A DNA stretch of 64,000 bases from Candidatus Sumerlaeia bacterium. GTDB taxonomy: Bacteria > Sumerlaeota > Sumerlaeia > SLMS01 > JAHLLQ01. The notes under the pieces are model-generated. The model saw nothing but the letters and a program-made list of their open reading frames with translations. It was not told the DNA's origin and did no database searches. A program made the position numbers and the translations under genes. The number at the start of each line of letters is the position of its first letter. Positions within the stretch are counted from its first letter, which is position 1. The stretch spans positions 26,378-90,377 of the forward strand of contig JANQSL010000171.1 of the NCBI GenBank assembly GCA_028284075.1, read 5' to 3'. This document shows positions 24,660 to 45,651 of the stretch, piece after piece.

Positions 24660-26194
24660 CAGTGAGATCCTCCCTGACTGCGAAGCGCCTCGAACGCCGA
24701 TTTGTTTTCCGCGTTTCTCCAGGCGTCCTCACCGGAAACCACACCGCTACGGGCCAGTTCCATCAAGGCATCGTCCATCGTCTGCATACCCTGGCGTTTG
24801 CCTGCCTGCATTGCGTTCACAAGCTGGTGCAGTTTGCCTTCCTTGATGAGCGAGGAAACACCGGAGGTCGTTACCAGGAGTTCCGCGGCAAGGACCATTC
24901 CCTCACCATCCGCCCGCGGCAGAAGACGCTGACTGACAATGCCGCGGATGGACTCGCTGATCATCAAAGTGATCTGTTCCTGCTGCTTGATGGGGAAGAC
25001 GTCGAGAACACGGCTGATAGTGCGTGCCGCACTCCCCGTGTGAAGGGTGCCGAACACAAGGTGACCGGTTTCCGCTGCTGAAATCGCAATGGACATCGTG
25101 TCCATGTCACGAAGTTCACCCACGAGAATAATATCCGGGTCCTCACGGAGCGCGGCTCGCAGCGCCTTGCTGAAAGATTCTGTATGAGGACCAACCTCGC
25201 GTTGTGTAACCTGACACGCGATAGGTTCGTGAACGTATTCAATCGGATCTTCGATCGTGACAATATGATCTTCACGAGAGCGATTCACCAGATCCACCAT
25301 CGAGGCGACGGTTGTTGTCTTTCCGGATCGTGTCGGGCCGGTGACCAGGACCAGACCCTGATAATACTCTGTCAGGTTCTTGACGGTGGCGGGAAGTCCC
25401 AGTTGCTCAAGGGAGGGGATTTCCTGGCTAATGACACGATACACACCATCCCAACCCAGTCTCTGGCGGAAGATGTTGCAACGAAACCGGCCGCTCTTTC
25501 CGAGATCGAGACCGAAATCGAGATTCTGATCTTTGAGCAATTGTGTGGTCTGTGAACCCGAAAGAAGGGAGAAGTTCAGCAGTTCCGACTCTTCCGCCGA
25601 CAGTGGCGCCATTTCCATGTAGCGCAGTCGGCCGTGCATGCGAACGAAAGGCGGCTGTCCGACTGAAAGATGCAGATCGGAAGCACCCCAATGACGTGCA
25701 AGTCGCAGGAAATCCTTGAGCCGCGTGGGTCCGCCCGCTTCCGGCTCTTCCGAAGCTCCAACGCGACCCATTGCTGTTTGCTTAGCCGCACCATAGGAGA
25801 CGCTGGACTGTTGCGGTGTTTTTTTCTCGAGCTTCGCTGTGGGAGCGGTTGGAGGGTCGACAGCAACGGGAGCCGTTGCCGGAACCGGATCAGGCGCCGG
25901 CGCCATTGGAGGCGGCACCACGGGCGGCGGAGCGATTGAGGGAGCAGGATCTGTTGGCATCTCAGTTTGCGGGGGAGGCGGCGATTCGGGTTCGGCCACA
26001 TCATCCGCCATCGCGCCGACGGCCTCGGCGAGCTGCTCTGCCTGCTCCGCCGTGAGGAAGTGTTTGCGGACCAGCAACTCACGAGGGTCCTGGCCGGGGA
26101 ACGCTTCCAGTTCTTCGCAGACGTGTTTGTACTGCTTCTTGGTGATGAGTCGATTCTCGAGCGCTATGTCGAGGAAGGGGCTGTTGGAAGTCAC
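24659..26194 (-). CDS. pilT: PilT/PilU-family ATPase with extra N-terminal helical domain and Pro-rich linker
   Basis: GPTRSGKTT, TIEDPIE, ALREDPDIILVGELRD, GTLHT, GMQTMD; about 155-aa N-terminal extension. Confidence 0.88.
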   Translation of the reverse strand: MTSNSPFLDIALENRLITKKQYKHVCEELEAFPGQDPRELLVRKHFLTAEQAEQLAEAVGAMADDVAEPESPPPPQTEMPTDPAPSIAPPPVVPPPMAPAPDPVPATAPVAVDPPTAPTAKLEKKTPQQSSVSYGAAKQTAMGRVGASEEPEAGGPTRLKDFLRLARHWGASDLHLSVGQPPFVRMHGRLRYMEMAPLSAEESELLNFSLLSGSQTTQLLKDQNLDFGLDLGKSGRFRCNIFRQRLGWDGVYRVISQEIPSLEQLGLPATVKNLTEYYQGLVLVTGPTRSGKTTTVASMVDLVNRSREDHIVTIEDPIEYVHEPIACQVTQREVGPHTESFSKALRAALREDPDIILVGELRDMDTMSIAISAAETGHLVFGTLHTGSAARTISRVLDVFPIKQQEQITLMISESIRGIVSQRLLPRADGEGMVLAAELLVTTSGVSSLIKEGKLHQLVNAMQAGKRQGMQTMDDALMELARSGVVSGEDAWRNAENKSAFEALRSQGGSH

Positions 26195-26270
26195 ACGCTC
26201 ACCCGGTCAGATTGATCGGTCTGTAGTATCGTGTAAATTCTGCTTCCGAGAGCACAGGCGGACCGCTCTC

Positions 26271-27719
26271 TCAGGAAACGGCGCTTTGTTTTCTGCGGTG
26301 CTGATCCACCGCCACGCAAAACGCCTTGTAGAATTCCTTGATTGCTTTCATTTCCCAGTCCGCAAGAAGGCCTGCGTCGTAACTTTTGCGTACGTCCGTG
26401 AACATACTCACAAGTTGCTGACGCATCTTCTCAAGCTGGTCCGGCGTGAGTTCCTTCATGTCGCTCAGACACAACTCCACACGACGGTCTTCCGGCGATA
26501 TTTCACCGGATTCGTTCTGTTTGTCGTCAGCCGCTTCCGGAGCCAGAGGCTGATCCGTCATCCCGGCGATCAGGTTCTTTGCATCCGGCGACTGTGGGCC
26601 CAGTGCCTCGACAAGGTCCGCGGCGGACACACCCTGGGTGGGAAGATCGGCAAAGCCCTCTCCCAGTCGCTCGTCAGCTTCGGAAAGCCACGATTCGAAG
26701 TCGTCCACTCCATCGACTTCGTCATCGGTTCCCTGGACGGGGTTTTCATCTTCGTCAAGGCTCTCGCCAAGCTCCTCGGCGAGTTTGTGGAGGGCTCCCT
26801 GGAGGACTTTCAACTTGGGGCTGTTGGGCATGCAGTTCAGGGCCCCGTCGACAGCCAGCTGAGCGCGGTGTGGTTCGCGCGCCTCCAGAAGCAGCTCGGC
26901 GGCGCGTTCATAAGACTGGCTTGCCGGACCCTTCTTGGCCTGCGACATCAGCAACTCGCCCTGGAGGTAGTGGGTCATGCCGTTCTGATCGTCCAGCTCC
27001 AGCATTGACGTGACGGTTTCCTGGGCGCCCCGCACCTGACCATACTGCATGTAGAAGTCGACGACCCATTTGAGCTGTTCCGCGGCTGCATCGGGCCGTC
27101 CCATGCGCGAGAACAGATAAGCAAGTTCCTTCCGGGCCTTAACCGCACCGGGCTGAAGAATAATCAGAATGTTATAGATAGAAAGAGTCTTTTCAAGCTC
27201 TCCGCGAACGGCATAGGATTCGGCTGCGAGCATGTACTCGCGGAAGGCGTCATCCTTCCGGTTCAGTTCGAGATAAAGCGCGGCCAGTTTTGACCGGGTG
27301 ATCTCATCCCGGGGATCGAGTTGAACCGCCTGCTCCAGGTAGGGAAGGGCGTCTTCATGCATTCCCTTGTTGATGTACATCTCACCGCGGAACAGCAGGT
27401 CGTTGGACTTGTCGTCCTCACCGAAGAGGTTCTTGGTCACCTCGTCGAGACCGCAGTCGTAATACATCGCAACGAGCTCGATCAGTAACCCGCCTTCGTA
27501 GGCGTCACACTGTGAATACTGGCACTTGAAGGTACGCTCCGATGTGTCGATAATCATCGACTTGCGAACCAGGTCTTTATGAACCGGGCAGTGGATTCGG
27601 ACGATACTGCCCTCTTGGTAGATGGAAGACTCTGTAAACCCCATCCGCTTGAGAACGACAAACGGGTCCAGAGACGCGTTGAAGGAATAATCCGAGTCTT
27701 TGAGTTCGAATCGAGCCAT
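26271..27719 (-). CDS. CHC2 (primase-type) zinc finger plus TPR-repeat protein
   Basis: Start re-called at MARFELKD. IHCPVHKD...FKCQYSQC...GGLLIELVA; TPR helices (ALPYLEQAVQLDPRD); acidic linker and helical tail. Confidence 0.72.
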   Translation of the reverse strand: MARFELKDSDYSFNASLDPFVVLKRMGFTESSIYQEGSIVRIHCPVHKDLVRKSMIIDTSERTFKCQYSQCDAYEGGLLIELVAMYYDCGLDEVTKNLFGEDDKSNDLLFRGEMYINKGMHEDALPYLEQAVQLDPRDEITRSKLAALYLELNRKDDAFREYMLAAESYAVRGELEKTLSIYNILIILQPGAVKARKELAYLFSRMGRPDAAAEQLKWVVDFYMQYGQVRGAQETVTSMLELDDQNGMTHYLQGELLMSQAKKGPASQSYERAAELLLEAREPHRAQLAVDGALNCMPNSPKLKVLQGALHKLAEELGESLDEDENPVQGTDDEVDGVDDFESWLSEADERLGEGFADLPTQGVSAADLVEALGPQSPDAKNLIAGMTDQPLAPEAADDKQNESGEISPEDRRVELCLSDMKELTPDQLEKMRQQLVSMFTDVRKSYDAGLLADWEMKAIKEFYKAFCVAVDQHRRKQSAVS

Positions 27720-27949
27720 ACGGAAATGGCAGCCCCGATCGCCAACAGGCCGATATCGTCCCGCCGATAATGTCACAGCAGGCTTACTACCGAGCCTTGG
27801 CGACGTCTTGAGGCAGCGGCAAGCCTTTTCACCCGCTGCCGAAGCACCGAATCCTGCCGTTTCTGCACTTGCGCTGGCCCCCGGCATGGCTGCCAGGCAC
27901 GGTTTCCGCAAATTACGGGATTCAATCGCCCTGCCTGAGGCAATGCACC

Positions 27950-29755
27950 ATGACATGCCCCGACCTTCGCTCTTTTCTGGATCACCTTCGCCATCGAGGC
28001 GAGCTTGTGGAGATTACGGCTCCTGTCGACGCTGATCAGGAGATTGCGGAGATTCACCGTCGAGTCATTTCAGCCCGAGGACCGGCGCTGCTTTTCACGA
28101 ATGTGAAAGGAGCTCGGTTTCCGGTGGTCACCAATCTGTTTGGCTCGACAGAGCGGACCTTCGCAGCCTTCGGAGAGAGACCGGGTAATTTTGTCCGAGA
28201 CGCCGCGGACTTTGCGGTTCACTCGATGCCGCCAACTCCGGGCAAACTGTGGGATGCCCGGGACCTCATTCGGCAGGGGCTTTCCATCGGAATGCGCCGC
28301 ATGGCGGAGGCTCCCATTGCAGATGTGATGGAGGAACCTCGCCTCAACAACGTTCCAATGCTCAAGCTCTGGCCGGAAGATGGTGGTCATTTCATGACCC
28401 TGCCGCTGGTGCTCACGGAAAGCCCGGAAGACGGGCGTCCCAATCTCGGGATGTATCGCATTCAGCGTTACGACAACCGTCGTACCGGTATTCACTGGCA
28501 GATTCACAAGGGTGGCGGTTATCATTATTCGGAAGCGGAAGCGCGGAATGAGCCATTGCCCGTGACCATTCTTGCAGGCGGCCCCCCTGCTTTGATGCTT
28601 GGGGCAATCGCTCCGTTGCCGGAAGGCGTACCTGAGTTGCTGCTGTCATCGCTGTTGCTTGGAAAGCGCCTTCCGGTTCTGCGCAGGAAGTCATGGCCTC
28701 ATCCTATTCCCGCCGACTGCGAATTTGCCTTTCTCGGCCATGTTCCTCCACATAAACGCCGTGACGAAGGCCCCTTTGGCGATCACTACGGGTACTACAG
28801 CCTGAAACATCCTTACCCCGTGTTTCATTGCCGGCGCGTCATGCGCCGCCGCGATGCCATCTGGCCCGCGACGGTTGTCGGAAAACCCCGGCAGGAGGAT
28901 TTCTTCATCGGCGACTATCTTCAGGACCTTTTGAGTCCGCTTTTCCCGCTGGTGATGCCTTCCGTGCGTGCATTGTGGTCCTATGGCGAAACAGGCTTTC
29001 ATTCGCTGGCGGCAGCCGTTGTTCATGATCGTTACCCCCGCGAGGCCATGGCTTCCGCCTTCCGCATTCTGGGGGAGGGGCAGCTGTCTCTGACGAAGTT
29101 TTTGCTGGTTCTCGACAAACCCTTGAATTTGCAAGACTTTCCAGGTGTGCTTCAGCATGTCCTTGAGCGTGTGAATTGGGAGACGGATCTTTTTATTTTC
29201 TCCAACATCGCCATGGATACACTCGATTACGCGGGACCGGAGGTGAACAAGGGCAGCAAGGGAGTCATCCTCGCTCTTGGCGAGTCCGTTCGCGAGTTAT
29301 CCGGGGAATTCAGAGGCAGTGCGCCTTCTGGTGTGGAGAACGTTCGTGTCTTTTGTCCTGGCTGTTTGGTTGTGGACGGTCCGAGTTACGAGGTGGACGC
29401 GGAGTTTCCAAAGAAACTTGCTCAGTCCGGTTCGCTCAAGAACTGGCCGTTGATCGTCCTTTGTGACCGCCCGTCGCAGGCGGCGGCCAGTACCATTAAC
29501 TTTCTCTGGACGACCTTCACCCGTTTCAATCCCGCAACGGACCTGTATGGTTCGGAGGAGCGTATCGTTCAGGGTCATATTGCCTACAGCGGTCCGGTAG
29601 TCCTGGATGCACGCGTCAAGCCCTGGTATCCGAAGGAAGTGTTCGCGGCACCGGACGTGGCGAACCTGGTGAGCCGCCGTTGGAACGAATACTTTCCCGG
29701 CGGCAACGTGGAGATGGGTTCCAGCGATTTGGGAGATTTGACGCCGGACAGTTAG
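27950..29755 (+). CDS. UbiD-family (prFMN-dependent) decarboxylase
   Basis: GPALLFTNVKG, NLGMYRIQ, EGPFGDHYGYY, VVGKPRQED, DTLDY. Start re-called at MTCPDLRSF. Confidence 0.92.
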   Translation: MTCPDLRSFLDHLRHRGELVEITAPVDADQEIAEIHRRVISARGPALLFTNVKGARFPVVTNLFGSTERTFAAFGERPGNFVRDAADFAVHSMPPTPGKLWDARDLIRQGLSIGMRRMAEAPIADVMEEPRLNNVPMLKLWPEDGGHFMTLPLVLTESPEDGRPNLGMYRIQRYDNRRTGIHWQIHKGGGYHYSEAEARNEPLPVTILAGGPPALMLGAIAPLPEGVPELLLSSLLLGKRLPVLRRKSWPHPIPADCEFAFLGHVPPHKRRDEGPFGDHYGYYSLKHPYPVFHCRRVMRRRDAIWPATVVGKPRQEDFFIGDYLQDLLSPLFPLVMPSVRALWSYGETGFHSLAAAVVHDRYPREAMASAFRILGEGQLSLTKFLLVLDKPLNLQDFPGVLQHVLERVNWETDLFIFSNIAMDTLDYAGPEVNKGSKGVILALGESVRELSGEFRGSAPSGVENVRVFCPGCLVVDGPSYEVDAEFPKKLAQSGSLKNWPLIVLCDRPSQAAASTINFLWTTFTRFNPATDLYGSEERIVQGHIAYSGPVVLDARVKPWYPKEVFAAPDVANLVSRRWNEYFPGGNVEMGSSDLGDLTPDS

Positions 29756-36800: not shown

Positions 36801-37313
36801 CGCCCCCCCCGCACTGGTTCCTATGATGGCGCCAAGAAAAGTGAGTCCGTCGATCCAGCCATTCGCCCAGGAAAGACGGCGTTCCGGCATGAGTTCCGGG
36901 ATAAGTCCATAAGTCGCCGGGCCGAAAAGGGCCATCCGGCAACCAAGGCACGTTAGAATTCCCAACGCCACGTACCAGGGATTGATAACAAGGGAAAGCA
37001 GCAGTCCGCCACCGATGACTGCGACTTCCGCGACCTTGGTTCCGACAACGACCGACCGTTTTGAGAATCGGTCCGCCAGCTGTCCCGCCATCAGCGACAG
37101 GAAAATCCAGGGTGCGGTGTAGAAGACCGCGACCAACGACCGATAATCATCGGGCGCCGCCCCCGCGGCAAGGGCCGCCTGGCTGGCGAGTAGCCACGCG
37201 ACCAGACGGAAAGCATTGTCGGCGAAGGTACCTTGCAGGACAACGCCCGCGAGTGCGCGGAAGGACAGGTCATCCGGTTTTGCGGGTTCAATGGAGGGTG
37301 AGATCTGACCCAT
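33876..37313 (-). CDS. aas: MFS (LplT-like) - acyltransferase - acyl-ACP synthetase fusion
   Basis: GQLADRFSKR MFS motif; NHMSYMD (HxxxxD) and FAEG; FSSGSTGVPKG, EGYGATE, TGDIA, DRLSRFSKIGGE. Confidence 0.92.
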   Translation of the reverse strand: MGQISPSIEPAKPDDLSFRALAGVVLQGTFADNAFRLVAWLLASQAALAAGAAPDDYRSLVAVFYTAPWIFLSLMAGQLADRFSKRSVVVGTKVAEVAVIGGGLLLSLVINPWYVALGILTCLGCRMALFGPATYGLIPELMPERRLSWANGWIDGLTFLGAIIGTSAGGAAIEANGLGIRVPLAILLVIGIAGLVVSFGINKVPAASPERRITPFPVRDSRRNVAEILATRGMLQAVVGIVLWWALAALALQTAMKLAEDTLGLSGFGTSRFFIYVGVGVGLGSWLAGKLSGDKIELGLVPLGAFFMGSLSMLVYLMPASELWMGLNVSLVGLFSGFFVIPLKAFVQHKARPETRGGVLGTVNFLMYSGIFISGGPVYFLLTSVLGFTAQQMFLSLGLFTLVMGLFALWTLPGASLRLILFIATHTVYRLRVTGREHVPEQGGGLIVCNHMSYMDGLLVIAAMDRPVRPIMFEGIYNKPLIKPFAKLSHAIPISDRMPPREVIRAMKEASEAIAHGDLVLIFAEGQISRTGQLLPFRKGLERIMRDAGEAPIIPMCLDRVRGTLLSYRPDRWLQKLPARIPEHVTISFGKPLPRKSQAPDVRKAVARLVSEAWSHRKSAARPLHHEAFLSARRRPFEKCMSDALKPEGIKRLEFVGAVTALGIRLRETLANEQMAGICLPPSIAGAVVNHAALSCGKPPVNLNYTASSDVMRTIMDQCGIKRVITSRQFLDKLKVEIPGDPLFVEDLFESLTGFEKFMGAVRALFIPLPYLEHMMGAPAGRSVDDLATIIFSSGSTGVPKGVMLSHWNISSNMRGVSEVFALNRGDCILGILPFFHSFGTTATLFLPHAAGIRVAYWPNPVDPAGIGQVVESNRVTFLVATPTFLQTYTRRVEARQFGSLQAVLTGAEKLRPAIARAFEEKFGVKPMEGYGATECSPIVSLNVPDFRAPGIYQRGQKPGTIGQPLPGITLRIVDPETHRDLEPEKEGLLLVRGPNVMQGYLGMPEKTGEVLRKGWYTTGDIARIDAGGFIEITDRLSRFSKIGGEMVPHIRVEEALQTAIDASEQVFAVTGVPDDKKGERLVVLHTVSEEDARKAAGQVASDGSIPNLWLPRTKDFVHVEKIPLLGTGKVDLRQVKSIAMAQEQ

Positions 37314-37538
37314 TTGGTTACCAGCTGATTCCTTATGATAGCAGTGGGGTGAGCGAATTTCACTCTTCGCGAGCGAGTTTCCATTTTGAGACGAGCAGTT
37401 CGTCAACGGTTGTTTATTATTTTTTGGCAAAAATCCGTCACTTCAACATCAAGCCGGCTGATTTGGGACAGGGCTGATGCCGTCATCCTTGACGTCAGGC
37501 AGTCTCTGATTCTTAGTGGTCGATACGGTCACGAACTT

Positions 37539-37904
37539 ATGTCTGAACTCGATCCCTACAGCCCCTACGAAGCTAACAGCGTGATTAGCACGGCGGAAGA
37601 GATGTTTCTGCTGATGTCCCGTTCGCCTGAATTCGCCCCCTTTTTGGGGCGTAGTGCGGGATTGTCGGACGAGGAACTGCGTTCCATCTTTGGTTTGGCG
37701 GTTGCCGCCATTCGGCGGGCGGGTCTGGGAGCGGAACCTGAATTTCAGGCGGTGCGCCAGCCGGTGGACAGCACGGCCGGGCTGAGCCGGGCCGCGCTGG
37801 AGACGCAAATCCGGGAAATGACGGAGGCGCTCGCGCGGCGGGAGGATCAGATTCGGGAACTTCGAAGCCGTCTCGAAAAGGCCGAAGCCCGGCGGCGGCC
37901 CTGA
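37539..37904 (+). CDS. Small hypothetical protein with C-terminal coiled coil
   Basis: MSELDPY...LETQIREMTEALARREDQIRELRSRLE heptads; lies just upstream of the mgl operon. Confidence 0.6.
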   Translation: MSELDPYSPYEANSVISTAEEMFLLMSRSPEFAPFLGRSAGLSDEELRSIFGLAVAAIRRAGLGAEPEFQAVRQPVDSTAGLSRAALETQIREMTEALARREDQIRELRSRLEKAEARRRP

Positions 37905-38091
37905 AGAATATTCGATTCCATAGACTTGGGGGCCGCAGGCGCTTTTCCCATGAACTCCCGCTTGCGTCCATGACGGTGTTTCTCGTTCCTGAATCCGTTG
38001 AACGGAGACGCCTGTCCGCACAGCGGATGAGACAAAGCGAATCCCGGCTCGCAAGCGGAGGGACCACTCCGATGAAGGCGGCCGAAAGCCC

Positions 38092-38946
38092 ATGACATCC
38101 ATGGCGATTCAAAGCCCTGTTATTAGTCGTCTTCGTGCCGATGTTCGCTCCGGTCGGAATCCCCGTGCGTGGATCCCACTGAGCCAGGAGCTGCGCCGAA
38201 ACAACCTCCATCTTGAGGCTCTGACAGTTTGCCGGGACGGACTGGCGGCCGACTCGGCGTCCGTTGCCGGAGTAACGGAAATGGTTCGTGTTCTGGCGGA
38301 TCTGGGGCGCTATGGGGACGCACTTGGGGAAATTGAGCGAATTGAGCGGCGTCAGCTCGGTTCGGCTGCGCGTGCTCACGGTCTTCTGAGACAGAAGCTT
38401 TGGTGCCAGATTCGGCTGCTTCGTGCTGAGGAGGCGGCAGAGTCTCTGAGCGATCTCGAGAAGGTGAATCCCTTCGATCCTTCGCTCAACACCCTTCGGA
38501 CGGAGGTGCGTCGTTTAGCCGGTCTTCGCCCGCCGAAGGCGGCTCGTTCCCCGGACGATTCGGGCGGAATGGTGTCATCGGAATTTGTCAAGGTCCTGCG
38601 TTCACAGGTTCAGCCCCATGGAAAAGTCCTTGCCGTTGCCTTGGTTGACCGGGAAAATAAGCAGTCTGTTGTCGAAGGTGACGAAGATATCGCCGATGTC
38701 GCGGCGCGGCTTGAGTATGAAGTGGCCGAAGCATGTAGTGATCTGGGGCATGGAACGCCAGCCTACCAGCTCATAGAGATGACCGAGATTCTCGTTGTTT
38801 TGGTGCGAAAAGGTGAGAAAACCCTCGTCCTTGCGACCGATCCAGGCATTAATTTTGGGCGTTTGCACCACACTGTTGCTCGAATGACACAGCAGTATCT
38901 GTCGGCCGGAGCCAATGACCCCGGCACTGAAACGGCGGAGGAGTGA
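38092..38946 (+). CDS. TPR plus C-terminal roadblock/LC7-like domain protein
   Basis: LSQELRR...EALTVCRDGL, LADLGRYGDA TPR helices; tail VLAVALVD...YQLIEM...LVL...NFGRL has the roadblock pattern. Confidence 0.7.
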   Translation: MTSMAIQSPVISRLRADVRSGRNPRAWIPLSQELRRNNLHLEALTVCRDGLAADSASVAGVTEMVRVLADLGRYGDALGEIERIERRQLGSAARAHGLLRQKLWCQIRLLRAEEAAESLSDLEKVNPFDPSLNTLRTEVRRLAGLRPPKAARSPDDSGGMVSSEFVKVLRSQVQPHGKVLAVALVDRENKQSVVEGDEDIADVAARLEYEVAEACSDLGHGTPAYQLIEMTEILVVLVRKGEKTLVLATDPGINFGRLHHTVARMTQQYLSAGANDPGTETAEE

Positions 38947-38982
38947 AGTGAACCGATATTGGAACTTGAAAAGGATTAACGG

Positions 38983-39876
38983 ATGATCCCCGTTTCCAGA
39001 TTCGCGGTGCTCCTGATCGTCTGCTCACTCGCCATCATTGGAATTCCCATGGCGCTGGGCGGAGCGTCTCCCTTTGAGGAGCCCAATACGGTATGGCCGA
39101 TCGTGATTGCGGCCGAGTTTATTGTCTATTTTTTGTTCACGTTTTTTTCCAGTCCCCGCATGACGCTCGGGTCCATTGGGCTCATGTCTGTTGCCATGAT
39201 TGTGACACGCTGTGTGGCAAGCTTTCTTGCCGGCCTGCTTCACTCTCTTTTGCTGCATGATGTGGCGACTCCCGATGCTTTCGGTCTCTGGGTTGGCAAC
39301 CCTGTCTCCATTCTGGTTCAAATGGTGGCGCTGATGGTGACGGTTCCTCATATTCTGGAGACCTTCATGCCGAACGTTTTGGGCCGTGGGAATGCCGGAC
39401 CTCAGGAGCGCCGTGGCGATGTCGAATCTTCTCCAGCGGGCGGGTTCGTTCAGGCTTTTTCTTTTGACGATCTCTCGGGTGTGATCCGAAAGACGCCAGG
39501 TCTTGAAGGGTTCCTGATCTTCAGCCAGGAAGGTCTTGTGGTTTGGAAGGACCTTCCGCTCCGCCTTGAAACCGATGAGGTCACAGCGCGTTTGATGCAG
39601 ACAACTTCAAATATCGGCCAGGTGTCAGAGGGCGGAGGGCTTGCACGGCTTCGACGCGTATTCGTACAGACCCGTGAACACTTGCTTTGCATCGTGGAGC
39701 TTAATGCGAACTTCGGAATGATTCTGGTTTACAACGGCCGGACCAAGCTGGCCGAGTGTGAACCGAGAGTGGACATTTTGGGAAAGACCGCTCGAGAGTT
39801 CCTTCAGTGGAAGTACCCCGGCTTGTCGATGAGTACGACGTCGATGAGTCGTGCCGCGGTCCCGGTCGGACTGTAA
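38983..39876 (+). CDS. Membrane protein (about 4 TM) fused to a roadblock/LC7 domain
   Basis: Hydrophobic N-half; KTPGLEGFLIFSQEGLVV...RRVFVQTRE roadblock motif. Confidence 0.75.
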   Translation: MIPVSRFAVLLIVCSLAIIGIPMALGGASPFEEPNTVWPIVIAAEFIVYFLFTFFSSPRMTLGSIGLMSVAMIVTRCVASFLAGLLHSLLLHDVATPDAFGLWVGNPVSILVQMVALMVTVPHILETFMPNVLGRGNAGPQERRGDVESSPAGGFVQAFSFDDLSGVIRKTPGLEGFLIFSQEGLVVWKDLPLRLETDEVTARLMQTTSNIGQVSEGGGLARLRRVFVQTREHLLCIVELNANFGMILVYNGRTKLAECEPRVDILGKTAREFLQWKYPGLSMSTTSMSRAAVPVGL

Positions 39877-39916
39877 TTCAAATACCGAAACCGAAAGTCA
39901 TTCGGAGAAGTGCCAT

Positions 39917-40267
39917 ATGGAACGAACACTTGCGGAGTTGAACAAGACACCCGGAGTCATCGGCTCGTTCGTTGTCGCGGCTGACGGTATTATTGTCGCT
40001 TCCGACTTCACCACGGAGCTTAACGACGAGATGATGGGGGCACTGACGAGCTCCATTATCAACTCCACGGAGAAGGCGACCCGCAAGATGGAACAGGGCG
40101 AACTGGTATCTTTCATCGTTGAAACAGACCGGAACAAGCTCTTCTTCAATACGACCCGCTCCGGCTTTCTCGTGTGTGTGGGTTCGCCGGATGCAAATCT
40201 GGGCTTAATACGAGTGGAAATGCGCGCCGCGTCAGAACGACTTAACAACGTCGGCATAGGAGTCTGA
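39917..40267 (+). CDS. Stand-alone roadblock/LC7 protein (MglB/MglC-like)
   Basis: [25 protein letters not shown]...[10 protein letters not shown]. Confidence 0.88.
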
Positions 40268-40316
40268 CCGGCAAACTTTCCCGGCAGGACGTTCCACCAA
40301 GGATCACGGACTTCTC

Positions 40317-41489
40317 ATGGCCACACTGAATTACGCATTCAAGGAAATCTCCTGCAAGATCGTCTACTACGGTTGCGGTCTTTGTGGCAAGACGACGAAC
40401 TTGATTCACGTTCACAAGACGGTCCCGGGCAAGTTTCGCGGCGAACTCGTATCGCTGGCGACGGAGCAGGATCGTACTCTGTTCTTCGATTTCCTTCCGC
40501 TCGATTTGGGCGAAGTGAAGGGTTTCAAGACCAAGTTCCAGCTCTATACCGTTCCTGGTCAGGTCTACTACAATGCAACAAGAAAGCTGGTGCTCCGCGG
40601 TGTGGACGGCCTTGTCTTTGTCGTCGACAGTCAGAAGGACCGCCTTCAGGAAAACCTCGAATCATTTGAGAACCTGAGACAAAACCTTGCCGAATACGGG
40701 TATAAGCTTCAGGAATCAAAAGATGATGATGAAGGAATTCCGTGGGTGTTGCAGCTCAACAAGCGCGACATGCCGCAGATCAGTACTGATGCGGAGGTGA
40801 TCGAAGCCCTCAAGCTTCCGGGCGGAGCCAACGTCGTGGAAGCAGTGGCGGTTAACGGCACCGGAGTGAAGGAAACCCTCAAGTCCATCAGCTCTCTGGT
40901 TATTCAGAAGCTCAACAAAGGTGGCGGTGCTCTCGCCGGAACGGGTCGGCCTTCCAGCGACTCCTCCGCACCCAAGGCAGCGGCTCCTGGTCCGGTTGCT
41001 GCCGCTCCCGCAGCCGCTCCACCGGCAGCGCAGCCGACGCCCGCACCCGCAGCGCAGCCGGCCCGGCCTGCAGCAGTGGCGGCAGCGCCCGCACCGGCAG
41101 CGGCGCCTCCACCGGCCGCGGCTGCTCCGGCGGCAATCGAAGTGACACAGAAGTGTGGCGCTGTTTGGCGGGGGATGAAAACGGGCGGCGGAGAGCTTAA
41201 GCTTATTCAGATAGGAATGACGGACGAGTACCAGTTGACGGGGGTTCTTTCCTTCGTCGGCGTTTCAAAGAGGTCGTTCAGCAAAAAGCTTGTGCGACGT
41301 GGTTTGGATGCTCGTACGTACGAGGGGCAGGAAGTCGAGTTCCTTGTGTTTGAGTCGGCGGGGGATCAGGATGGTCCGCCTCTGAGCGTGTTGGTGCAGA
41401 ACGGTGAAGGAAACGCGATGTACTTCTCCTACAGCAGTTTCTGGGGAGAGGTTTCAGTGCTGCCGGAAGGCAGGAAGGTGATGCCCTGA
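40317..41489 (+). CDS. mglA: MglA small GTPase with Pro/Ala linker and extra C-terminal beta domain
   Basis: [45 protein letters not shown]. Confidence 0.93.
40921..41135 (+). repeat. Low-complexity Pro/Ala-rich coding linker in mglA
   Basis: [55 protein letters not shown]; GCA/GCG/CCG-rich DNA. Confidence 0.8.
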
Positions 41490-41548
41490 CCAATCCCCTC
41501 AACTCCTGGAAATCACGCGGCGGGTTGCAAGAAGAAAGGATCCATCAG

Positions 41549-42031
41549 ATGGCAAAAGCTCCTCTGATCCTGACGAAGACCGAGATTACGCAAATCCACA
41601 GGACCTTGCTTCAGATGCTGAAGCAATCGGAGGCGAAGTGCGCCATCCTTGTGGATGCGGATGGCAAGTGTCTCGCCAAGAAGGGCTTTACCCAGAACAT
41701 CGACACAGATGCTCTGGCGGCTCTCATAGCCGGTTCTTTTGCTTCGACTCGCGCGATGGCCGCACTGGTGGGTGAATCGGATTTCTCCGTTCTGTTCCAT
41801 CAGGGCGAGAAGGACCACATTCATAATGTTCTCGTCGATAATGACACGATCCTGACTGTGATTTTCGATGATCGCACGACTATTGGCATGGTCCGCCTTT
41901 ATTCGAAGGAAGGCACCAAGGCACTTCGTGACGTGCTTGACAAGGCGCGCAACAAGCGAATGCCCGTCGGGAAGAAGATCGACATTGAACAGGACGTCGA
42001 GCAGCGTCTGGACGATCTGTTCAGTTCCTGA
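41549..42031 (+). CDS. mglB: MglB GTPase-activating roadblock protein
   Basis: LVDADG, ALAALIAGSFAST..MA.LVGE..FSVLFHQGE, IFDDRTTIGMVRL, C-terminal DDLFS helix as in myxobacterial MglB. Confidence 0.9.
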   Translation: MAKAPLILTKTEITQIHRTLLQMLKQSEAKCAILVDADGKCLAKKGFTQNIDTDALAALIAGSFASTRAMAALVGESDFSVLFHQGEKDHIHNVLVDNDTILTVIFDDRTTIGMVRLYSKEGTKALRDVLDKARNKRMPVGKKIDIEQDVEQRLDDLFSS

Positions 42032-42068
42032 CCTGCAGCGCTGACACACCTTCCCGGGACGATACTCC

Positions 42069-43367
42069 ATGCAAGGCAATCTGCAGCAGGTTCCCCTGCC
42101 CGAAGTCCTGCAATTCATCAGCATGGGGAAATCCACAGGTATCCTGCAGCTTCGCAGGGGCGGCCTTGAAATCTCCCTCTCCATCCATAACGGGAAAATC
42201 ATCAATTCGTCCGCTCTGGAGCGTCGGCGGCGTCTGGGCGATCTGCTGGTCAATCGCGGCCTGTTGAAGCGGAGCGAGCTTTCCCGTCTGCTTAATCTTC
42301 AGAAGACTGTGGAATCGGACAAGCGCCTTGGCGAGATCCTGATCGAGCGCGAGATTGTCGATGCGGAAACGATTCGCGAGACGCTTCGTCTGCAGTTGGA
42401 AGAGGAAATCTGGAACCTGTTTGCCTGGGATGAGGGCGACTTTCGTTTTGAAGCCGTGCCAGCCTCGCAGCTTGGCGCTCCCATTGTACAGATTGATATC
42501 GAACCCATGATCCTGGAAGGCACTCGGCGCAACGACGAGTGGACCAAGATTGAACAGTATGTGCCAAGTGACCGTGTGGTTCTGGAAACGACCCTTGGTG
42601 AGCAGCCGGATTCCTTTGAACGCGACATCGATCTCAAGCCACACGAATGGGAAGTGCTTTCTCAGATCAACGGACGGTTTACGGTGCAGGCGGTTGTCAC
42701 TCGTTCAAACATGGGGCGATTCGAAGTTTACTCCATCCTGACGCAGTTCATCAAGTCAGGTCTGGTTACCATGCGGGAGGCGGATCCCATGTCGCTTCCT
42801 CCGCTTGAAAACGGCCGACACGTGTCTCAGGACGGTTTTGCGAACGACGAGGACAAACAAGGGAAGGGAAGCGGGCTTCTCGGAGTGCTGGGACGGAAGC
42901 AAAAGGATCGCACCGAAAGCAGCGCGGTTTTTCTTTCACCGATTGGCGCACTGGCCGCGTACCACAACCAGCTTGTCCAACGTGTTTGCGCTCTCAAGGA
43001 ATACAAGGCGGAATCCGAGGATGAAGTGGTTGTATCCAAGCTCTGGACGGGTCTTGTTCAGGTTTTCTCGCGCGCCGACCTTATTCGTGTGAGCGGAAAC
43101 AGGATTGATGTTACTCTTGTGGAGCGCTTTTTCGAGCTTTGCGGTTACGAAGAGCTGATCGATGAGTGTTACGAAGATGTTCTTGAGGCTTTAACGAGTG
43201 TTCTAAGACTGGTTTATGTACATTTTTGCCGGAGAGCGGGGGAGAAGCCCGTTGCGCGCGTCGCACGGGAGTTGCTGGATGAAATGTCACCTCGTTTTTC
43301 GGTGAAGTATCGTGAGCCGTTTCCTTTTGCGGAGCGGATTCAGAATGTGTTGAGAATCGCGGGATAG
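42069..43367 (+). CDS. DUF4388 (PATAN-like) protein with tandem MshEN-like motifs and a winged-helix-like region
   Basis: MQGNLQQVPLPEVLQFI...TGILQL; RLGDLLVNRGLL...LNLQ and RLGEILIEREIV...LRLQ; LFAWDEGDFRF. Confidence 0.85.
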   Translation: MQGNLQQVPLPEVLQFISMGKSTGILQLRRGGLEISLSIHNGKIINSSALERRRRLGDLLVNRGLLKRSELSRLLNLQKTVESDKRLGEILIEREIVDAETIRETLRLQLEEEIWNLFAWDEGDFRFEAVPASQLGAPIVQIDIEPMILEGTRRNDEWTKIEQYVPSDRVVLETTLGEQPDSFERDIDLKPHEWEVLSQINGRFTVQAVVTRSNMGRFEVYSILTQFIKSGLVTMREADPMSLPPLENGRHVSQDGFANDEDKQGKGSGLLGVLGRKQKDRTESSAVFLSPIGALAAYHNQLVQRVCALKEYKAESEDEVVVSKLWTGLVQVFSRADLIRVSGNRIDVTLVERFFELCGYEELIDECYEDVLEALTSVLRLVYVHFCRRAGEKPVARVARELLDEMSPRFSVKYREPFPFAERIQNVLRIAG

Positions 43368-43389
43368 GTCCCGAACCAGGAGCCGTAAC

Positions 43390-44613
43390 ATGCCCGGAGA
43401 ACGGGTCATCGTTATCGACAACTCAGCCACTGTCCAGGAGCTGTGCAAGGCGATCCTGGAAGACCATGGCTATCGCGTTTCCGTTGCCGGCAACGGTCTT
43501 GCCGCACTGACGCACCCCGAGATCGAGTCGTTCGACCTGATTATGGTGGATAGTTCACTCGAGGGTATCTCAGGTCTGGAAACGACACGTCAGGTCAAAA
43601 CCGATCGGGACACATATAAGATTCCGGTTCTTCTCATGATCCCGGAAGACAGCGTGGATCTGCTGGAGAATGTCCCTCTCAAGGGTGCCACCGGCTGGAT
43701 CTCAAAGCCGTTTTCGCCTCCGAAGGTCGTCGCCAAGGTGCGGGAAGTCCTGGAAGAACAGCGCATTCGTGCGATGTCGGAGGAGTATCTTCGTGAAGCC
43801 GCCGAGAGTCACATGCAGTCTCTCGCCGAGCAGAAGATACAGCGCGCCGTGGAAAAGAAGATCCAGATCATTGTCGAGCGCGCGATCCAGTCGATTGTGT
43901 CGATCATTGATCAGCGTGCCCGTAAGGAAGTGGAGGCGCGTGTTACTGCTCTGACAGCCGAAAAGGAGCAGGAGCTCGTCAAAATGACCGTGCAGGAAGT
44001 GGCGCGGTCGATGGTGGAGAAGCTCGCCGACCGGAAAGTTTCGGAAGCGTTAAATGCAACGCTCGTTGAAACAACGGAGAAAACCGTCAAGCGTGCAGCC
44101 GACGGGATGTTGCCTAGTCTCGTTCGCGATCGCATCAAAGAGCAGATTGAGAATATGCTCCCGCGGGAAGTCGAAACACGGGTCAACAAGGCTTCTGAAG
44201 AGCGCGCGGCAGAGGTTGGCGAGCAGCTTGTTTCGATCATTCAGCAGCAGTCACAAAAGCTGGTTCCCGTGATTGCCCGCGAGAGCCTTCCGGAGCTTGC
44301 CGAGCGGCAGATGATGCAGGTTGCGGTAAACAAACTTCCGAAGTTGATTTCCGGGTCCGCCCACACGGAAATGACCACGGAGATGAATCAGACGGTTCGC
44401 CCTTTTGTAGACGCTGAAATGGCGCGCCTTCGAAAACGAGCGAACAATGTGATTATTGTCTGTTCCCTCTTTTCGCTCCTGATAGCAGTCGTGCTCTTTA
44501 TCGTCGCACTCGTGGTTCTTTTCGGCGCGGATCAGAAGGTCCGGTCCGGTGGTTCCGAGGAAGCGGCTTACCTGCCTCAGCCGGCACCCATTGTCCTTTC
44601 CATGGCGGAATGA
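43390..44613 (+). CDS. Receiver domain, long helical region and C-terminal TM anchor
   Basis: VIVIDNS, DLIMVD, ISGLE, WISKPF receiver; E/K/R-rich helical repeats; VIIVCSLFSLLIAVVLFIVALVVLFG TM. Confidence 0.85.
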   Translation: MPGERVIVIDNSATVQELCKAILEDHGYRVSVAGNGLAALTHPEIESFDLIMVDSSLEGISGLETTRQVKTDRDTYKIPVLLMIPEDSVDLLENVPLKGATGWISKPFSPPKVVAKVREVLEEQRIRAMSEEYLREAAESHMQSLAEQKIQRAVEKKIQIIVERAIQSIVSIIDQRARKEVEARVTALTAEKEQELVKMTVQEVARSMVEKLADRKVSEALNATLVETTEKTVKRAADGMLPSLVRDRIKEQIENMLPREVETRVNKASEERAAEVGEQLVSIIQQQSQKLVPVIARESLPELAERQMMQVAVNKLPKLISGSAHTEMTTEMNQTVRPFVDAEMARLRKRANNVIIVCSLFSLLIAVVLFIVALVVLFGADQKVRSGGSEEAAYLPQPAPIVLSMAE

Positions 44614-44820
44614 CGGGTCTGATCGTACCTTCCATGCGATCAACGTACGGATAACAGTTCCAAAGCGTACGGCCCCAGTCGCTGATACTCCGGTCTTTCC
44701 TTTCAAAGTACTGAAAACGCCGGGTTTGCCGCAAGCAAGCCGGACGGCACGTTCTTCTCTCCTCTGATTCGCGACTCGGACAGGGTTCGAGTACTCACAA
44801 TCAGTTCAGGAGTTTATACA

Positions 44821-45651
44821 ATGACCCGTAAATCACTCACTTCCCTTCTTTCAATCGCAGCGGCACTCAGCCTGGGGGCAGCCACCGTTTTTGCCGGACC
44901 ACTTCTTGGAAAGGGTGGCGGCAAGGGCGAGTCTCTCGCATCCACCGGCGATCCCGCCGGAGAATTCTCTCCTCCGTCTCGTCGTGGCCAGGGTGGTTTT
45001 GGCGGACGCGGCGGCGGTCACCATGGACCCGCCGGAATGCTCGGCCAGCTCCGGGATCAGGGCCGCTTCTGGGACAAGCCGGAACTGGCAGAAGCCATTG
45101 AGTTGACGGAGGACCAGATAGAGGCACTGGAGGCGAGCTACACCGAGGCGCAGCTTTCTTTCGAAGCCATTGAGGGCTCTGTTCGCGACGGCTATAAAAC
45201 TCTGCGTGAGACAATCGAGACGGATGAGCCGGATATTGTGGAGGTGAACGAGGCCATCGACGCGGCAACCGATGCGCAAAACGAGGCCATGAAGATTCTG
45301 CTCGGACACCGTGTCGTGGTGAAGAATGTCCTGACAGCGGACCAGGAGGAGGCACTTCGGGAGTATCGCCGGGACAACTTCCGTGAGCGTTTTCAGGAGA
45401 TTCGTGAACGCATGGGCGAGTTCCGCGGTGTTCTTCGAGATCTGCTGGAGGACGGTACCCTGAGCTCTGAGGACTGGGAGCAGATCGATGCGATGCTGGA
45501 GAACGTTGAGCCGGAGCGGGCCGACCGTATTCGCGAGCACATCGAACGAGTTGAGGAGCATGGTATTGGCGCTCCGCCTCCGCCGCGAGGACCTGGAGGA
45601 GAGGGCTCCGGTCCTTCAGAGAAGCCGTCCCGCCGAGCCCGTAAAGGATAG
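44821..45651 (+). CDS. Periplasmic Spy/CpxP/ZraP-like protein
   Basis: AGGAG RBS; signal peptide; Gly-rich segment; two LTxxQ motifs (LTEDQ, LTADQ). Confidence 0.8.
   Translation: MTRKSLTSLLSIAAALSLGAATVFAGPLLGKGGGKGESLASTGDPAGEFSPPSRRGQGGFGGRGGGHHGPAGMLGQLRDQGRFWDKPELAEAIELTEDQIEALEASYTEAQLSFEAIEGSVRDGYKTLRETIETDEPDIVEVNEAIDAATDAQNEAMKILLGHRVVVKNVLTADQEEALREYRRDNFRERFQEIRERMGEFRGVLRDLLEDGTLSSEDWEQIDAMLENVEPERADRIREHIERVEEHGIGAPPPPRGPGGEGSGPSEKPSRRARKG

Follow-up and report, generated by a model that had tools for sequence, protein, structure and literature searches.

A Sumerlaeota version of a widespread extended-MglA/multi-roadblock gene module and its likely link to type IV pili

Introduction

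An operon of Candidatus Sumerlaeia bacterium, located in the 64,000-nucleotide stretch of contig JANQSL010000171.1 analyzed here (the window), encodes a long MglA-family GTPase among four roadblock proteins, and raises the question of what such a gene set controls and whether it is peculiar to this phylum. Several of its components have counterparts in better known systems. MglA-GTP is described as binding the TPR proteins SgmX (PMC7519303) and Bd2492 (PMC3983030), roadblock dimers are reported to stack in RomR/MglC/MglB, for which an analogy between MglB/MglC and Ragulator is already in print (PMC10329633), and the PATAN domain is reported to bind the N-domains of PilB1 and PilC in yeast two-hybrid assays (bioRxiv 10.1101/2021.06.11.447907). 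A bacterial precedent for a membrane-associated small-GTPase system is the conservon, in which CvnA is described as a membrane-spanning histidine kinase (PMC4316618). Type IV pilus genes have been reported in all studied Sumerlaeota MAGs (PMC8092238). A published survey of prokaryotic small GTPases excluded proteins >240 aa, and our literature searches found no description of an extended-MglA/multi-roadblock module.

We propose, with moderate confidence, that the window contains the form taken in Sumerlaeota by a widespread "extended MglA/multi-roadblock" module. Such a module would be a Ras-like GTPase switch associated with the membrane, whose most likely role is to position or license the motor of the type IV pilus. 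The module is probably a conserved, little-studied controller of type IV pili, because its core gene set adjoins pilus motor genes in other phyla.

Results

Organization of the Locus

All eight open reading frames (g1–g8) are present on the + strand (Table 1). Seven of them, g2–g8 (38092–44613), are tightly packed, with spacing of 22–49 nt or overlap, and encode in turn a TPR-roadblock, a 4-TM-roadblock, a free roadblock, a 390-aa group-1 MglA, MglB, a PATAN/DUF4388 protein and a tail-anchored receiver. This is the gene set listed in an earlier note on this DNA, every domain call of which was upheld. The note had also counted g1 in the operon; the ORF exists, but its membership is doubtful, as it lies 187 nt upstream of g2 and, like g8, has no counterpart in the loci from other phyla. 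It belongs to no family, with weak coiled-coil Pfam matches in its last ~35 residues only (E 0.003–0.05, all below cut-off), and shows no relationship to the small membrane protein that occupies this place in other phyla (hhalign probability 0.1). Its codon log-odds of 0.123 falls inside the range of sure genes (0.08–0.21), a weak test given that another antisense ORF scores 0.142; the ORFs that overlap g1 in antisense score −0.03 and −0.06.

Table 1. Features of the extended-MglA locus (positions are those of the window; aa, amino acids).
Feature	Position	Strand	Description
g1	37539..37904	+	121-aa hypothetical protein; short C-terminal coiled-coil-like stretch; operon membership uncertain
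g2	38092..38946	+	284 aa; TPR helices, residues 9–144; linker; roadblock domain ~159–269
g3	38983..39876	+	297 aa; ~4 TM helices, residues 1–128; roadblock domain ~165–250; conserved REFLQWKYPGL tail
g4	39851..40267	+	Free single-domain roadblock; likely start ATG 39914, giving 117 aa
g5	40317..41489	+	390-aa group-1 MglA; G domain 1–200; linker ~201–271; all-beta C-domain 272–390
Tandem repeat in linker-coding part of g5	41020..41102	+	TRF: imperfect, period 24 nt, 3.5 copies, 68% matches
g6	41525..42031	+	MglB, predicted roadblock GAP of MglA; Robl_LC7 46.7 bits
g7	42069..43367	+	PATAN (DUF4388); MshEN-like helical insert; ~270-aa C-terminal region of no assigned family
MshEN-like insert of g7	42231..42395	+	Residues 55–109; MshE-related c-di-GMP motif
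g8	43390..44613	+	REC, residues 1–120; long charged helical region; one TM ~350–385
TM segment of g8	44437..44544	+	Residues ~350–385

Four Roadblock Proteins

Each of the four roadblock assignments was confirmed, by Pfam, by comparing profiles with each other or with the PDB, or by a Foldseek search with an AlphaFold2 model. The TPR protein g2, on whose roadblock fold the earlier interpretation depended, gave no Robl_LC7 match as a single sequence in Pfam and a TPR_19 score of 21.3 bits (cut-off 25). Its AlphaFold2 model (mean pLDDT 80.8) consists of eight helices, a linker and an alpha-beta-beta-alpha-beta-beta-beta-alpha domain, and its top Foldseek matches in the PDB are MglB, LAMTOR2 and Asgard roadblocks. 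Aligned over its full length, g2 matches the TPR-Rbl family of other phyla (hhalign probability 96.5, E 8e-10), the C-domain of which matches the free-Rbl family (98.9, E 1.2e-17); all 40 PDB matches of the family profile are roadblock proteins (best E 9.4e-12).

In g3, ~4 hydrophobic segments precede a domain that scores 21.2 bits against Robl_LC7 at residues 168–243, under the cut-off of 23, which is reached by 15 of the 23 sequences of the TM-Rbl family (g3 included in the family). This domain aligns with the Rbl family at an hhalign probability of 95.2, and g3 aligns with the TM-Rbl family of other phyla over 282 columns (98.0); the roadblock domain of the TM protein was thereby supported by Pfam and hhalign, although a PDB search with the profile of the TM-Rbl family gave no solved roadblock. 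The free roadblock g4 (Robl_LC7 44.8 bits) has the Asgard roadblocks 7yh1 and 7f8m as its best solved relatives (E 3e-12), no chain named MglC being among the matches of this search, and corresponds to the Rbl whose gene immediately precedes mglA in other phyla (hhalign probability 99.8). Residues 13–167 of g6 match M. xanthus MglB (6h5b/6izw, E 1.8e-26), and by this homology g6 is the MglB-type GAP of g5. In a tree of 63 roadblock domains each class forms one group (supports: MglB 99, free Rbl 95, TPR-Rbl 78, TM-Rbl 77), with g4 inside the free-Rbl group and g6 inside the MglB group. The extra roadblocks may serve as GAPs or adaptors.

An Extended Group-1 MglA

Residues 1–205 of g5 match M. 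xanthus MglA (E 1.5e-68), and R53, T54 and T78-V79-P80-G81-Q82 are invariant in 90 g5 homologues; homology thus identifies g5 as a group-1 MglA in which R53 is the intrinsic Arg finger and the Gln of TVPGQ is catalytic. The G domain is followed by an Ala/Pro-rich, disordered linker (pLDDT 41–57 in the AlphaFold2 model) and a confidently modeled C-domain of eight strands (residues 276–383, pLDDT 91–96). An HMM of this C-domain matches 117 of the best 120 g5 homologues, and no Pfam family fits it in any of 90 members; its net charge is −1 in g5 versus a family median of +4. Extended MglAs separate in a tree from 29 short classic MglAs (supports 82 and 92). Where g5 has its beta domain, the MglAs of the full-module loci from other phyla end in a polybasic-hydrophobic tail, found in 12 of 12 tail-type sequences. 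The helical hydrophobic moment of the tail exceeds that of shuffled sequences in only 3 of the 12, and an amphipathic helix is therefore not established.

PATAN and Receiver Proteins

The PATAN protein g7 (DUF4388, 103 bits) carries an MshE-related c-di-GMP motif just above cut-off (NF053729, 39.7 bits versus 38). Residues 55–78 of the insert contain a strict MshEN motif, and a second copy (residues 86–109) has Glu at the position of the conserved Gly; the spacer has 7 residues instead of 5. The insert matches the N-domains of PilF, MshE and PilB in the PDB; none of 10 PATAN orthologues from other phyla matches the c-di-GMP motif. The receiver of g8 (Response_reg 70.2 bits; CheY 4h60, E 4.5e-15) retains D10, D53 and K106, with N11 in place of the second acidic residue and I84 in place of the conserved Thr, and hydropathy shows a single hydrophobic segment in the protein.

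Conservation and Gene Neighborhood in Other Phyla

Of 80 fetched loci, 11 (Ignavibacteriota, Zixibacteria and others; Pfam check made on two loci) have an identical order of genes on one strand, PATAN, TPR-Rbl, TM-Rbl, Rbl, extended MglA, MglB, PilB, with PilT following in 9 and PilC in 8 of the 11. The module also occurs in loci labeled Acidobacteriota, and reduced versions are present in Planctomycetota (PATAN, TPR-Rbl, extended MglA, MglB), Armatimonadota (TM-Rbl, Rbl, MglA, PATAN) and Fibrobacterota. The core gene order is therefore kept across phyla, and the proposal of the earlier note that this is a distinct system of one poorly studied phylum was contradicted by this distribution. L007, the sole Sumerlaeota locus among the 80, carries an orphan paralogue. 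An extended-MglA homologue probably lies on the same contig as 8 of 22 non-self TM-Rbl homologues and as the one g2 homologue, judging by exactly matching "longest contig" lengths.

Relative to the Ignavibacteriota/Zixibacteria module (loci L001–L050), the window has orthologous TPR-Rbl, TM-Rbl, free Rbl, extended MglA, MglB and PATAN, with five core genes in the same order. In contrast, those loci have PATAN upstream, adjoining a small 3-TM protein, pilB-pilT-pilC-pilS directly after the module, the MglA tail described above, a PATAN insert without the canonical c-di-GMP motif, and neither g1 nor g8.

Discussion

The locus is best read as an MglA/MglB polarity switch that is associated with the membrane, includes a scaffold of several roadblocks and controls type IV pili. 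The roadblock domains of g2, g3 and g4 together with MglB would be four-way paralogues, each class kept across phyla, that assemble as stacked roadblock dimers; the conserved 4-TM domain of g3 would anchor the stack in the inner membrane, and g2 would contribute a TPR arm for additional partners. By analogy with MglC/MglB/RomR in Myxococcus, the scaffold could recruit or regulate MglA as a GEF, co-GAP or docking site. MglA itself would be held near the membrane by its C-terminal extension, which in sister lineages would consist of a flexible linker and the polybasic-hydrophobic tail, the latter presumably replaced in g5 by the beta-rich domain. The PATAN protein g7 would provide the output to PilB/PilC, as in cyanobacteria, and may additionally sense c-di-GMP via its MshEN-like insert, and g8 would feed in a phosphorylation signal from a kinase.

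Control of pili had been suggested from a pilus system in the window. In the window that system amounts to no more than two PilT-family ATPase paralogues and a TPR protein, encoded on the opposite strand at a distance of 12 kb, and a pilin-like gene, with neither pilB nor pilC; the link itself is stronger than a single window could reveal, since all 11 full-module loci of other phyla have pilB immediately after mglB. An unlikely alternative is that the same GTPase/roadblock module has a non-pilus role in Sumerlaeota (in DNA uptake, gliding, cell division or some other process of the pole or envelope) and that pilus adjacency elsewhere is lineage-specific. The operon's flanks in the window, an Aas-type acyltransferase and genes of unknown or GSU2086-family function rather than pilus genes, are consistent with such a role. 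ComEC, just upstream in 9 of the 11 loci, would fit DNA uptake, but DNA uptake via ComEC itself depends on type IV pili. Myxococcus MglA is reported to control gliding too (PMC9481161); the invariable position of pilB and the two-hybrid binding of PATAN to PilB/PilC nevertheless favor the pilus.

Somewhat less probable again is conservon-like transmembrane signaling, with the 4-TM roadblock as sensor, the receiver and the remaining roadblocks as relays, MglA as output switch and a readout other than polarity. The membrane part of g3 has invariant polar residues (E45, Y49, R76, Q113), shared with its other-phyla orthologues, beyond the needs of a passive anchor; CvnB5 is among the solved relatives of the g2 family (E 8e-6, profile versus PDB); and conservons, described as coupling the histidine kinase CvnA, roadblock CvnB and small GTPase CvnD (PMC4316618; PMC13343842), likewise have a single operon for a membrane protein, a roadblock and a GTPase of the MglA family. 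The Sumerlaeota operon, however, has no homologue of kinase-like CvnA or DUF742 CvnC, g5 belongs, with its Arg finger, to group 1 of the MglAs and not to the group-2 GTPases of conservons, and pilus gene adjacency favors motility or positioning. That the neighbors share no common machine, the extra roadblocks being independent regulators or decaying MglB paralogues, is very improbable: g2 does evolve fast, with one homologue besides itself in a word-seeded search of 5.8 billion proteins, but the same order in 11 loci of several phyla, the single group formed by each roadblock class, the tight spacing and the confident AlphaFold2 domains of g2 all argue otherwise.

The polarity module of M. xanthus (MglA, MglB, MglC, RomR/RomX, RomY) is one of the closest known systems. 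Both have a group-1 MglA that carries the TVPGQ motif and its own Arg finger, an MglB from one and the same family encoded beside it, at least one further roadblock protein and a protein with a receiver domain; stacked roadblock dimers and, through a TPR effector (SgmX in M. xanthus), control of type IV pili would be further points of likeness. The Sumerlaeota module differs in its 390-aa MglA with linker and beta domain, in three extra roadblock proteins (one 4-TM, one TPR-fused), in the order Rbl-mglA-mglB instead of the mglB-mglA of classic loci, and in a tail-anchored receiver without RomR architecture. The Bdellovibrio hub (MglA-Bd2492-RomR-CdgA) similarly places MglA at the piliated pole with a TPR protein, a c-di-GMP receptor and a receiver protein, but lacks MglB; its description gives the TPR protein no roadblock domain and does not call the c-di-GMP receptor a PATAN protein (PMC3983030). 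Cyanobacterial PATAN (PatA-type) regulators share the DUF4388 domain and the link to the type IV pilus motor, but are PATAN-REC fusions fed by chemosensory systems, whereas PATAN and REC are separate genes here and g7 ends in a different region of ~270 aa.

In eukaryotic Rag-Ragulator, too, a small GTPase is served by a membrane anchor and multiple roadblock domains, but the anchor is the lipidated LAMTOR1 rather than a roadblock-fused TM domain, and g5 has no roadblock domain of its own. Among solved structures, LAMTOR2 ranks with the best matches to the roadblock domain of g2 (sequence profile E about 7e-7, Foldseek E 4.1e-5).

Conservation of the Module

The module is real and conserved, and it belongs with the MglA/MglB systems as a variant, not as a separate kind. 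The eight ORFs encode a hypothetical protein (g1), a TPR-roadblock protein (g2), a transmembrane (TM) roadblock protein (g3), a free roadblock protein (g4), an extended MglA (g5), MglB (g6), a PATAN/DUF4388 protein (g7), and a tail-anchored receiver protein (g8). The tight spacing of g2 to g8 fits a single transcript, since the intergenic gaps are 22–49 nt or the genes overlap; 187 nt separate g1 from g2. Consensus scans for promoter-like sites (2 against 2.7 expected) and terminator-like sites (16 against 10.9 ± 2.8) were uninformative, and no Rfam RNA family was matched in window positions 37000–45000.

Features of the module, its flanks, and the remainder of the window
Feature	Window position	Strand	Description
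Module, g1–g8	37539–44613	+	Eight ORFs
g3 membrane part	38983–39366	+	Hydrophobic region with invariant polar residues
g3 motif	39796–39825	+	REFLQWKYP(G/A)L after the roadblock domain, invariant in the Sumerlaeota-type g3 family
Imperfect tandem repeat	41020–41102	+	24-nt unit, 3.5 copies; codes for part of the g5 Ala/Pro linker
g7 MshEN-like region	42231–42395	+	Holds the canonical first MshEN motif
Aas-type acyl-ACP-phospholipid acyltransferase	upstream of operon	divergent	1179 bits, cut-off 1221
Signal-peptide protein, then GSU2086-family protein	downstream of operon		After a 208-nt gap
Two adjacent PilT/PilU-family ATPases and TPR protein	23601–27956	−	410 and 436 bits (ATPases)
Solute-binding protein domain fused to ABC permease domain	13117–15390		One 757-aa ORF
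Phage-integrase-family match	56078–56737	−	Weak, 27.6 bits
Short ORFs only	57000–64000		After the weak integrase-like match

The earlier note had staked its reading on gene order being conserved across relatives, and for the core genes this holds across phyla. A locus scan of species-representative genomes, taken as the best 80 of 599 stretches and mostly from other phyla, yielded 11 loci with the whole core gene set (L001, L002, L003, L005, L006, L008, L011, L012, L015, L024, and L050), which belong, where labelled, to Ignavibacteriota, Zixibacteria, or Terriglobales. Seven genes stand in identical order on one strand in these loci: PATAN, TPR-roadblock, TM-roadblock, free roadblock, extended MglA, MglB, and PilB (each 11/11; gene identities checked with Pfam in L003 and L015). 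PilT (9/11) and PilC (8/11) follow downstream, the misses falling at contig ends or in L015. The DNA-uptake channel gene comEC is directly upstream of the module, on the PATAN side, in 9/11 (L002, L003, L005, L006, L011, L012, L015, L024, and L050), which hints that the module and competence pili are connected. In L003, the sole locus where that ORF was scanned, murJ precedes comEC.

Versions with fewer of these genes are present in Planctomycetota (PATAN, TPR-roadblock, extended MglA, MglB) and in one Armatimonadota locus (TM-roadblock, roadblock, short MglA, PATAN), and most of the remaining loci among the best 80 of 599 hold classic short mglB-mglA pairs. Within the lineage of the window, the best 120 homologues of g5 are full-length and, where the phylum is named (four rows), come from Candidatus Sumerlaeota or Sumerlaeia; indirect evidence of linkage is that 8 of the 22 g3 homologues other than g3 itself, and the one g2 homologue, come from contigs of exactly the same length as that of a g5 homologue.

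Compared with the full module of other phyla, the module of the window has its PATAN gene moved behind mglB, lacks a small 3-TM protein, has gained g1 and g8 (which have no counterpart in those loci), has no adjacent pilB, and encodes an MglA with a different ending. Equating g1 with the ~125-aa small membrane protein found at the equivalent position in other phyla was rejected (hhalign probability 0.1, no relation).

MglA and Its Predicted GAP

Homology identifies g5 and g6 as a predicted group-1 MglA switch with its MglB GAP. Residues 1–205 of g5 match Myxococcus xanthus MglA (5ymx) with an E value of 1.5e-68 in a PDB sequence search. Group-1 MglAs are defined by an intrinsic arginine finger and a TVPGQ G3 motif (PMC4316618), and g5 has both, with the catalytic Gln at Q82 and the arginine finger R53 beside the G2 threonine T54; R53, T54, T78, V79, P80, G81, and Q82 show no variation in alignments of 14 and of 90 full-length homologues. 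The mglB gene, g6, starts 35 nt downstream of g5, and its product aligns along its whole length (residues 13–167) with residues 5–159 of M. xanthus MglB (6h5b; E 1.8e-26) and scores 46.7 bits for Robl_LC7. Against the NCBIfam equivalog for Thermus-type MglB (NF052242) it reaches 84.7 bits, below the cut-off of 200.

An AlphaFold2 model of g5 (90-row alignment; mean pLDDT 82.6, pTM 0.56) has three parts: a confident G domain, with 14 MglA chains among its Foldseek matches (TM 0.89–0.94 normalised by target length); a disordered stretch at residues 206–270 (pLDDT 41–57); and a confident C-domain of eight consecutive strands at residues 276–383 (pLDDT 91–96). The linker is Ala/Pro-rich, with 31 Ala and 18 Pro among 71 residues, and linker length ranges from 27 to 138 aa across 117 g5 homologues. 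Linker and C-domain together bring g5 to 390 aa, outside the single-domain, <240-aa inclusion rule of the survey of prokaryotic small GTPases.

A quick IQ-TREE analysis of 65 G domains (SH-aLRT supports) places 29 short classic MglAs on one side of a branch (92) and 32 mostly extended MglAs together (82). The Sumerlaeota type, ending in the C-domain (94), and the tail type of other phyla (99) form one group each, and jointly occupy one side of a branch (79).

Two Endings of the Extended MglA

In the tail type (the 11 full-module loci and the homologue P0097), the G domain is followed by a 130–280-aa low-complexity linker and then a conserved polybasic-hydrophobic tail, whose last 25 residues (n = 12) include 7–12 K+R, 0–2 D+E, and 6–8 F/L/I/W/M/V. 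This composition appears typical of membrane-binding tails, and the ending is reminiscent of the Ras hypervariable region with its membrane anchor. An amphipathic helix in the tails is not supported: 9/12 fail a hydrophobic-moment shuffle test, and 3/12 have a shuffle fraction ≤ 0.06.

The Sumerlaeota type has the beta domain in place of the tail. An HMM of this C-domain, built from 90 sequences, matches 117 of the 120 best g5 homologues, including 27/30 outside the building set; the three others are two truncated proteins and one with a polybasic tail. Among the best 80 of 599 loci it matches only L007, from Sumerlaeaceae, and a phmmer search of 1.84 billion representatives gave 9 matches at E ≤ 0.001, among them the extended MglA P0014 and short, probably partial proteins. 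A relationship between the C-domain and the MglA extensions of other phyla was considered and discarded after comparison. No match to the C-domain was found in the PDB by sequence, and none of its 90 members matches a Pfam family, PilZ included. Foldseek with the whole g5 model returned GTPases only, a search that did not reach the C-domain; structural look-alikes of the homologue P0008 in the ESM Atlas are assorted beta proteins (TM 0.48–0.63) and serve as leads only. The net charge of the C-domain has a family median of +4 and is −1 in g5. We hypothesize that both endings, tail and beta domain, have the same task of keeping MglA bound to the membrane or to one of its proteins.

The L007 match (6582–7655) is an orphan paralogue of 357 aa, flanked by genes for BshC, an AAA ATPase, and an MFS transporter, with no roadblock, PATAN, or MglB gene as neighbour.

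Four Classes of Roadblock Protein

The earlier note saw roadblock domains in the TPR and TM proteins as well as in g4 and g6. Free roadblock g4 is the simplest case: it scores 44.8 bits for Robl_LC7, reaching the gathering score, and the Asgard roadblock 7yh1 is among its closest relatives of solved structure; none of its 17 PDB matches is a chain named MglC.

For g2, Pfam alone finds TPR_19, weakly, and no roadblock domain, and single-sequence PDB searches with the C-domains of g2 and g3 returned no roadblocks. Four lines of evidence beyond Pfam nevertheless place the fold in g2, and the objection that it is missing therefore clearly fails. First, g2 aligns with the TPR-roadblock family of other phyla over 248 columns (hhalign probability 96.5). 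Second, the C-domain of this family, g2 included, aligns with free roadblocks (probability 98.9, E 1.2e-17). Third, the C-domain profile matches 40 PDB sequences at E ≤ 1, all 40 of them roadblock proteins, including Asgard 7yh1 (9.4e-12), LAMTOR2 (~7e-7), CvnB5 (8e-6), dynein LC7, and MglB. Fourth, an AlphaFold2 model (12-row alignment, mean pLDDT 80.8) has eight helices, a floppy linker, and then an alpha-beta-beta-alpha-beta-beta-beta-alpha domain at residues 159–269. Foldseek with this model gives 65 matches at E ≤ 0.001, of which, among the matches listed, 31/31 are roadblock or Rag/Gtr proteins; the best from the PDB are MglB (E 2.6e-5), LAMTOR2 (4.1e-5), and Asgard roadblocks (TM 0.64–0.73 by target length).

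The same claim for g3 stands at the level of the family but is weaker for the protein itself. Of the 23 sequences in its family (g3 included), 15 reach the Robl_LC7 cut-off and 21 have E ≤ 0.01, and the family C-domain aligns with the free-roadblock family (hhalign probability 95.2); however, g3 scores 21.2 bits, just below the cut-off of 23, and the family profile matched no solved roadblock in the PDB. Residues 1–128 of g3 comprise about four hydrophobic helices by hydropathy, with invariant polar residues (Glu45, Tyr49, Arg76, and Gln113) inside them. Because of these residues, and because TM-roadblock orthologues of other phyla have a matching Glu and Arg, the sequences suggest that the membrane domain may do more than anchor.

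A tree of 63 roadblock domains, which carries long-branch warnings, has one group per class (MglB 99, free 95, TPR-linked 78, TM-linked 77), and each of the four domains of the window falls inside its own class. Four separate classes argue that the four genes are, as far as sequence can tell, old and non-redundant paralogues.

PATAN and Receiver Proteins

DUF4388 (PF14332) is matched by g7 at 103.2 bits (gathering score 25), and the MshE-related c-di-GMP motif model NF053729 at 39.7 bits (cut-off 38). The MshEN domain carries two copies of a 24-residue motif, RLGxx(L/V/I)(L/V/I)xxG(L/V/I)(L/V/I)xxxxLxxxLxxQ, with a 5-residue spacer (PMC5013675). In g7 the first motif (residues 55–78) is exact; the second (residues 86–109) has Glu at the position of a conserved Gly, and 7 residues separate the two copies. 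The MshEN-like region matches the N-domains of PilF, MshE, and PilB in the PDB. Compared with 10 PATAN orthologues of other phyla, only the protein of the window has the canonical first motif: the first Arg is replaced in 10/10 orthologues, and no version of the motif matches them.

The receiver domain of g8 scores 70.2 bits and, relative to CheY (4h60), keeps the phospho-acceptor D53, D10, and K106, while the second acidic residue of the pocket is N11 and the conserved Thr is I84. It is followed by a long charged helical region and, by hydropathy, a single C-terminal TM segment. Assignment of the module to a defence system was rejected, as PADLOC matched 0/7 proteins, the g8 receiver domain aside.

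Relation to Known Systems

To our knowledge, nearly all that is understood about polarity control by MglA and MglB comes from Myxococcus, whose polarity proteins are soluble. The response regulator RomR has Pro-rich and Glu-rich regions; g8 has a receiver but not that architecture. In the Rag-Ragulator system, GTPases with their own C-terminal roadblock meet roadblock heterodimers on a lipidated anchor, whereas none of four roadblock HMMs matches g5, whose C-domain is all-beta. The operon of the actinobacterial conservon includes the kinase-like membrane protein CvnA and CvnC (DUF742), and no Pfam or NCBIfam match to either kind was found in g1–g8.

Elements of the module have precedents. Stacked roadblock dimers (RomR/MglC/MglB) have been likened to Rag-Ragulator (PMC10329633). 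The TPR proteins SgmX (PMC7519303) and Bd2492 (PMC3983030) are bound by MglA-GTP to promote pili, and PATAN domains have the N-domains of PilB and PilC as binding partners (bioRxiv 10.1101/2021.06.11.447907). The small-GTPase survey reports some group-1 and group-5 mglA genes near PATAN genes and a few group-1 MglAs coupled to two MglBs, and states that sequences >240 aa were excluded (Wuichet and Sogaard-Andersen, 2014; PMC4316618). Searches of mostly open-access full texts yielded no description of an extended MglA, of a TM- or TPR-fused roadblock beside mglA, or of this gene order, and no paper that treats Sumerlaeota and MglA together; a genomics paper on Sumerlaeota reports pilus genes in all MAGs and does not contain the word GTPase (PMC8092238).

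Proposed Mechanism and Significance

Beyond the GTPase-GAP pair, we infer a mechanism in which the roadblock proteins g2, g3, and g4 would together form a platform at the membrane that serves MglA and MglB. This platform would be connected to the pilus motor by the TPR arm (g2) and the PATAN protein (g7), and inputs would arrive as c-di-GMP through g7 and as phosphorylation through g8.

A tentative and, in our judgement, rather unlikely joint reading goes further and sees in the module an ancient bacterial version of a eukaryotic principle, in which a small GTPase anchored in the membrane sits on a scaffold of roadblock proteins. A flexible linker of the hypervariable type would tether MglA to the membrane; its terminus would be a polybasic-hydrophobic tail or, as in g5, a beta domain that may bind lipid or a partner. 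Roadblock dimers, stacked on an integral membrane roadblock protein whose conserved 4-TM domain possibly senses signals, would be the docking site of MglA. This ancient arrangement would be present in Sumerlaeota, Ignavibacteriota, and Zixibacteria, with a reduced form in Planctomycetota, Fibrobacterota, and Armatimonadota, and the 2014 survey would have missed it because GTPases >240 aa were left out.

The module appears to be a second, widespread design of MglA/MglB control: the GTPase has a long linker and a membrane-directed ending, three more roadblock proteins are encoded beside it, one of them integral to the membrane, and in several phyla the pilus motor genes are direct neighbours. 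It makes testable whether extra roadblocks serve a bacterial Ras-like switch as GEF, as co-GAP, or as scaffold, how PATAN proteins join MglA to PilB/PilC, and whether bacteria have an equivalent of Rag-Ragulator roadblock stacking on a membrane anchor. It also shows where the reference survey of small GTPases in prokaryotes is incomplete, all MglA relatives >240 aa having been dropped from it.

Flanks and Remainder of the Window

The genes that flank the operon are unrelated to the module, and neither pilB nor pilC was found within the 64-kb window. The second of the two PilT/PilU-family ATPases has a 155-aa N-terminal extension that matches no known family, and the adjacent TPR protein (561 aa) has weak SgmX/PilW-like matches. 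The operon around the solute-binding protein–permease fusion also encodes a second permease, a GH94 phosphorylase, and a LacI-type regulator.
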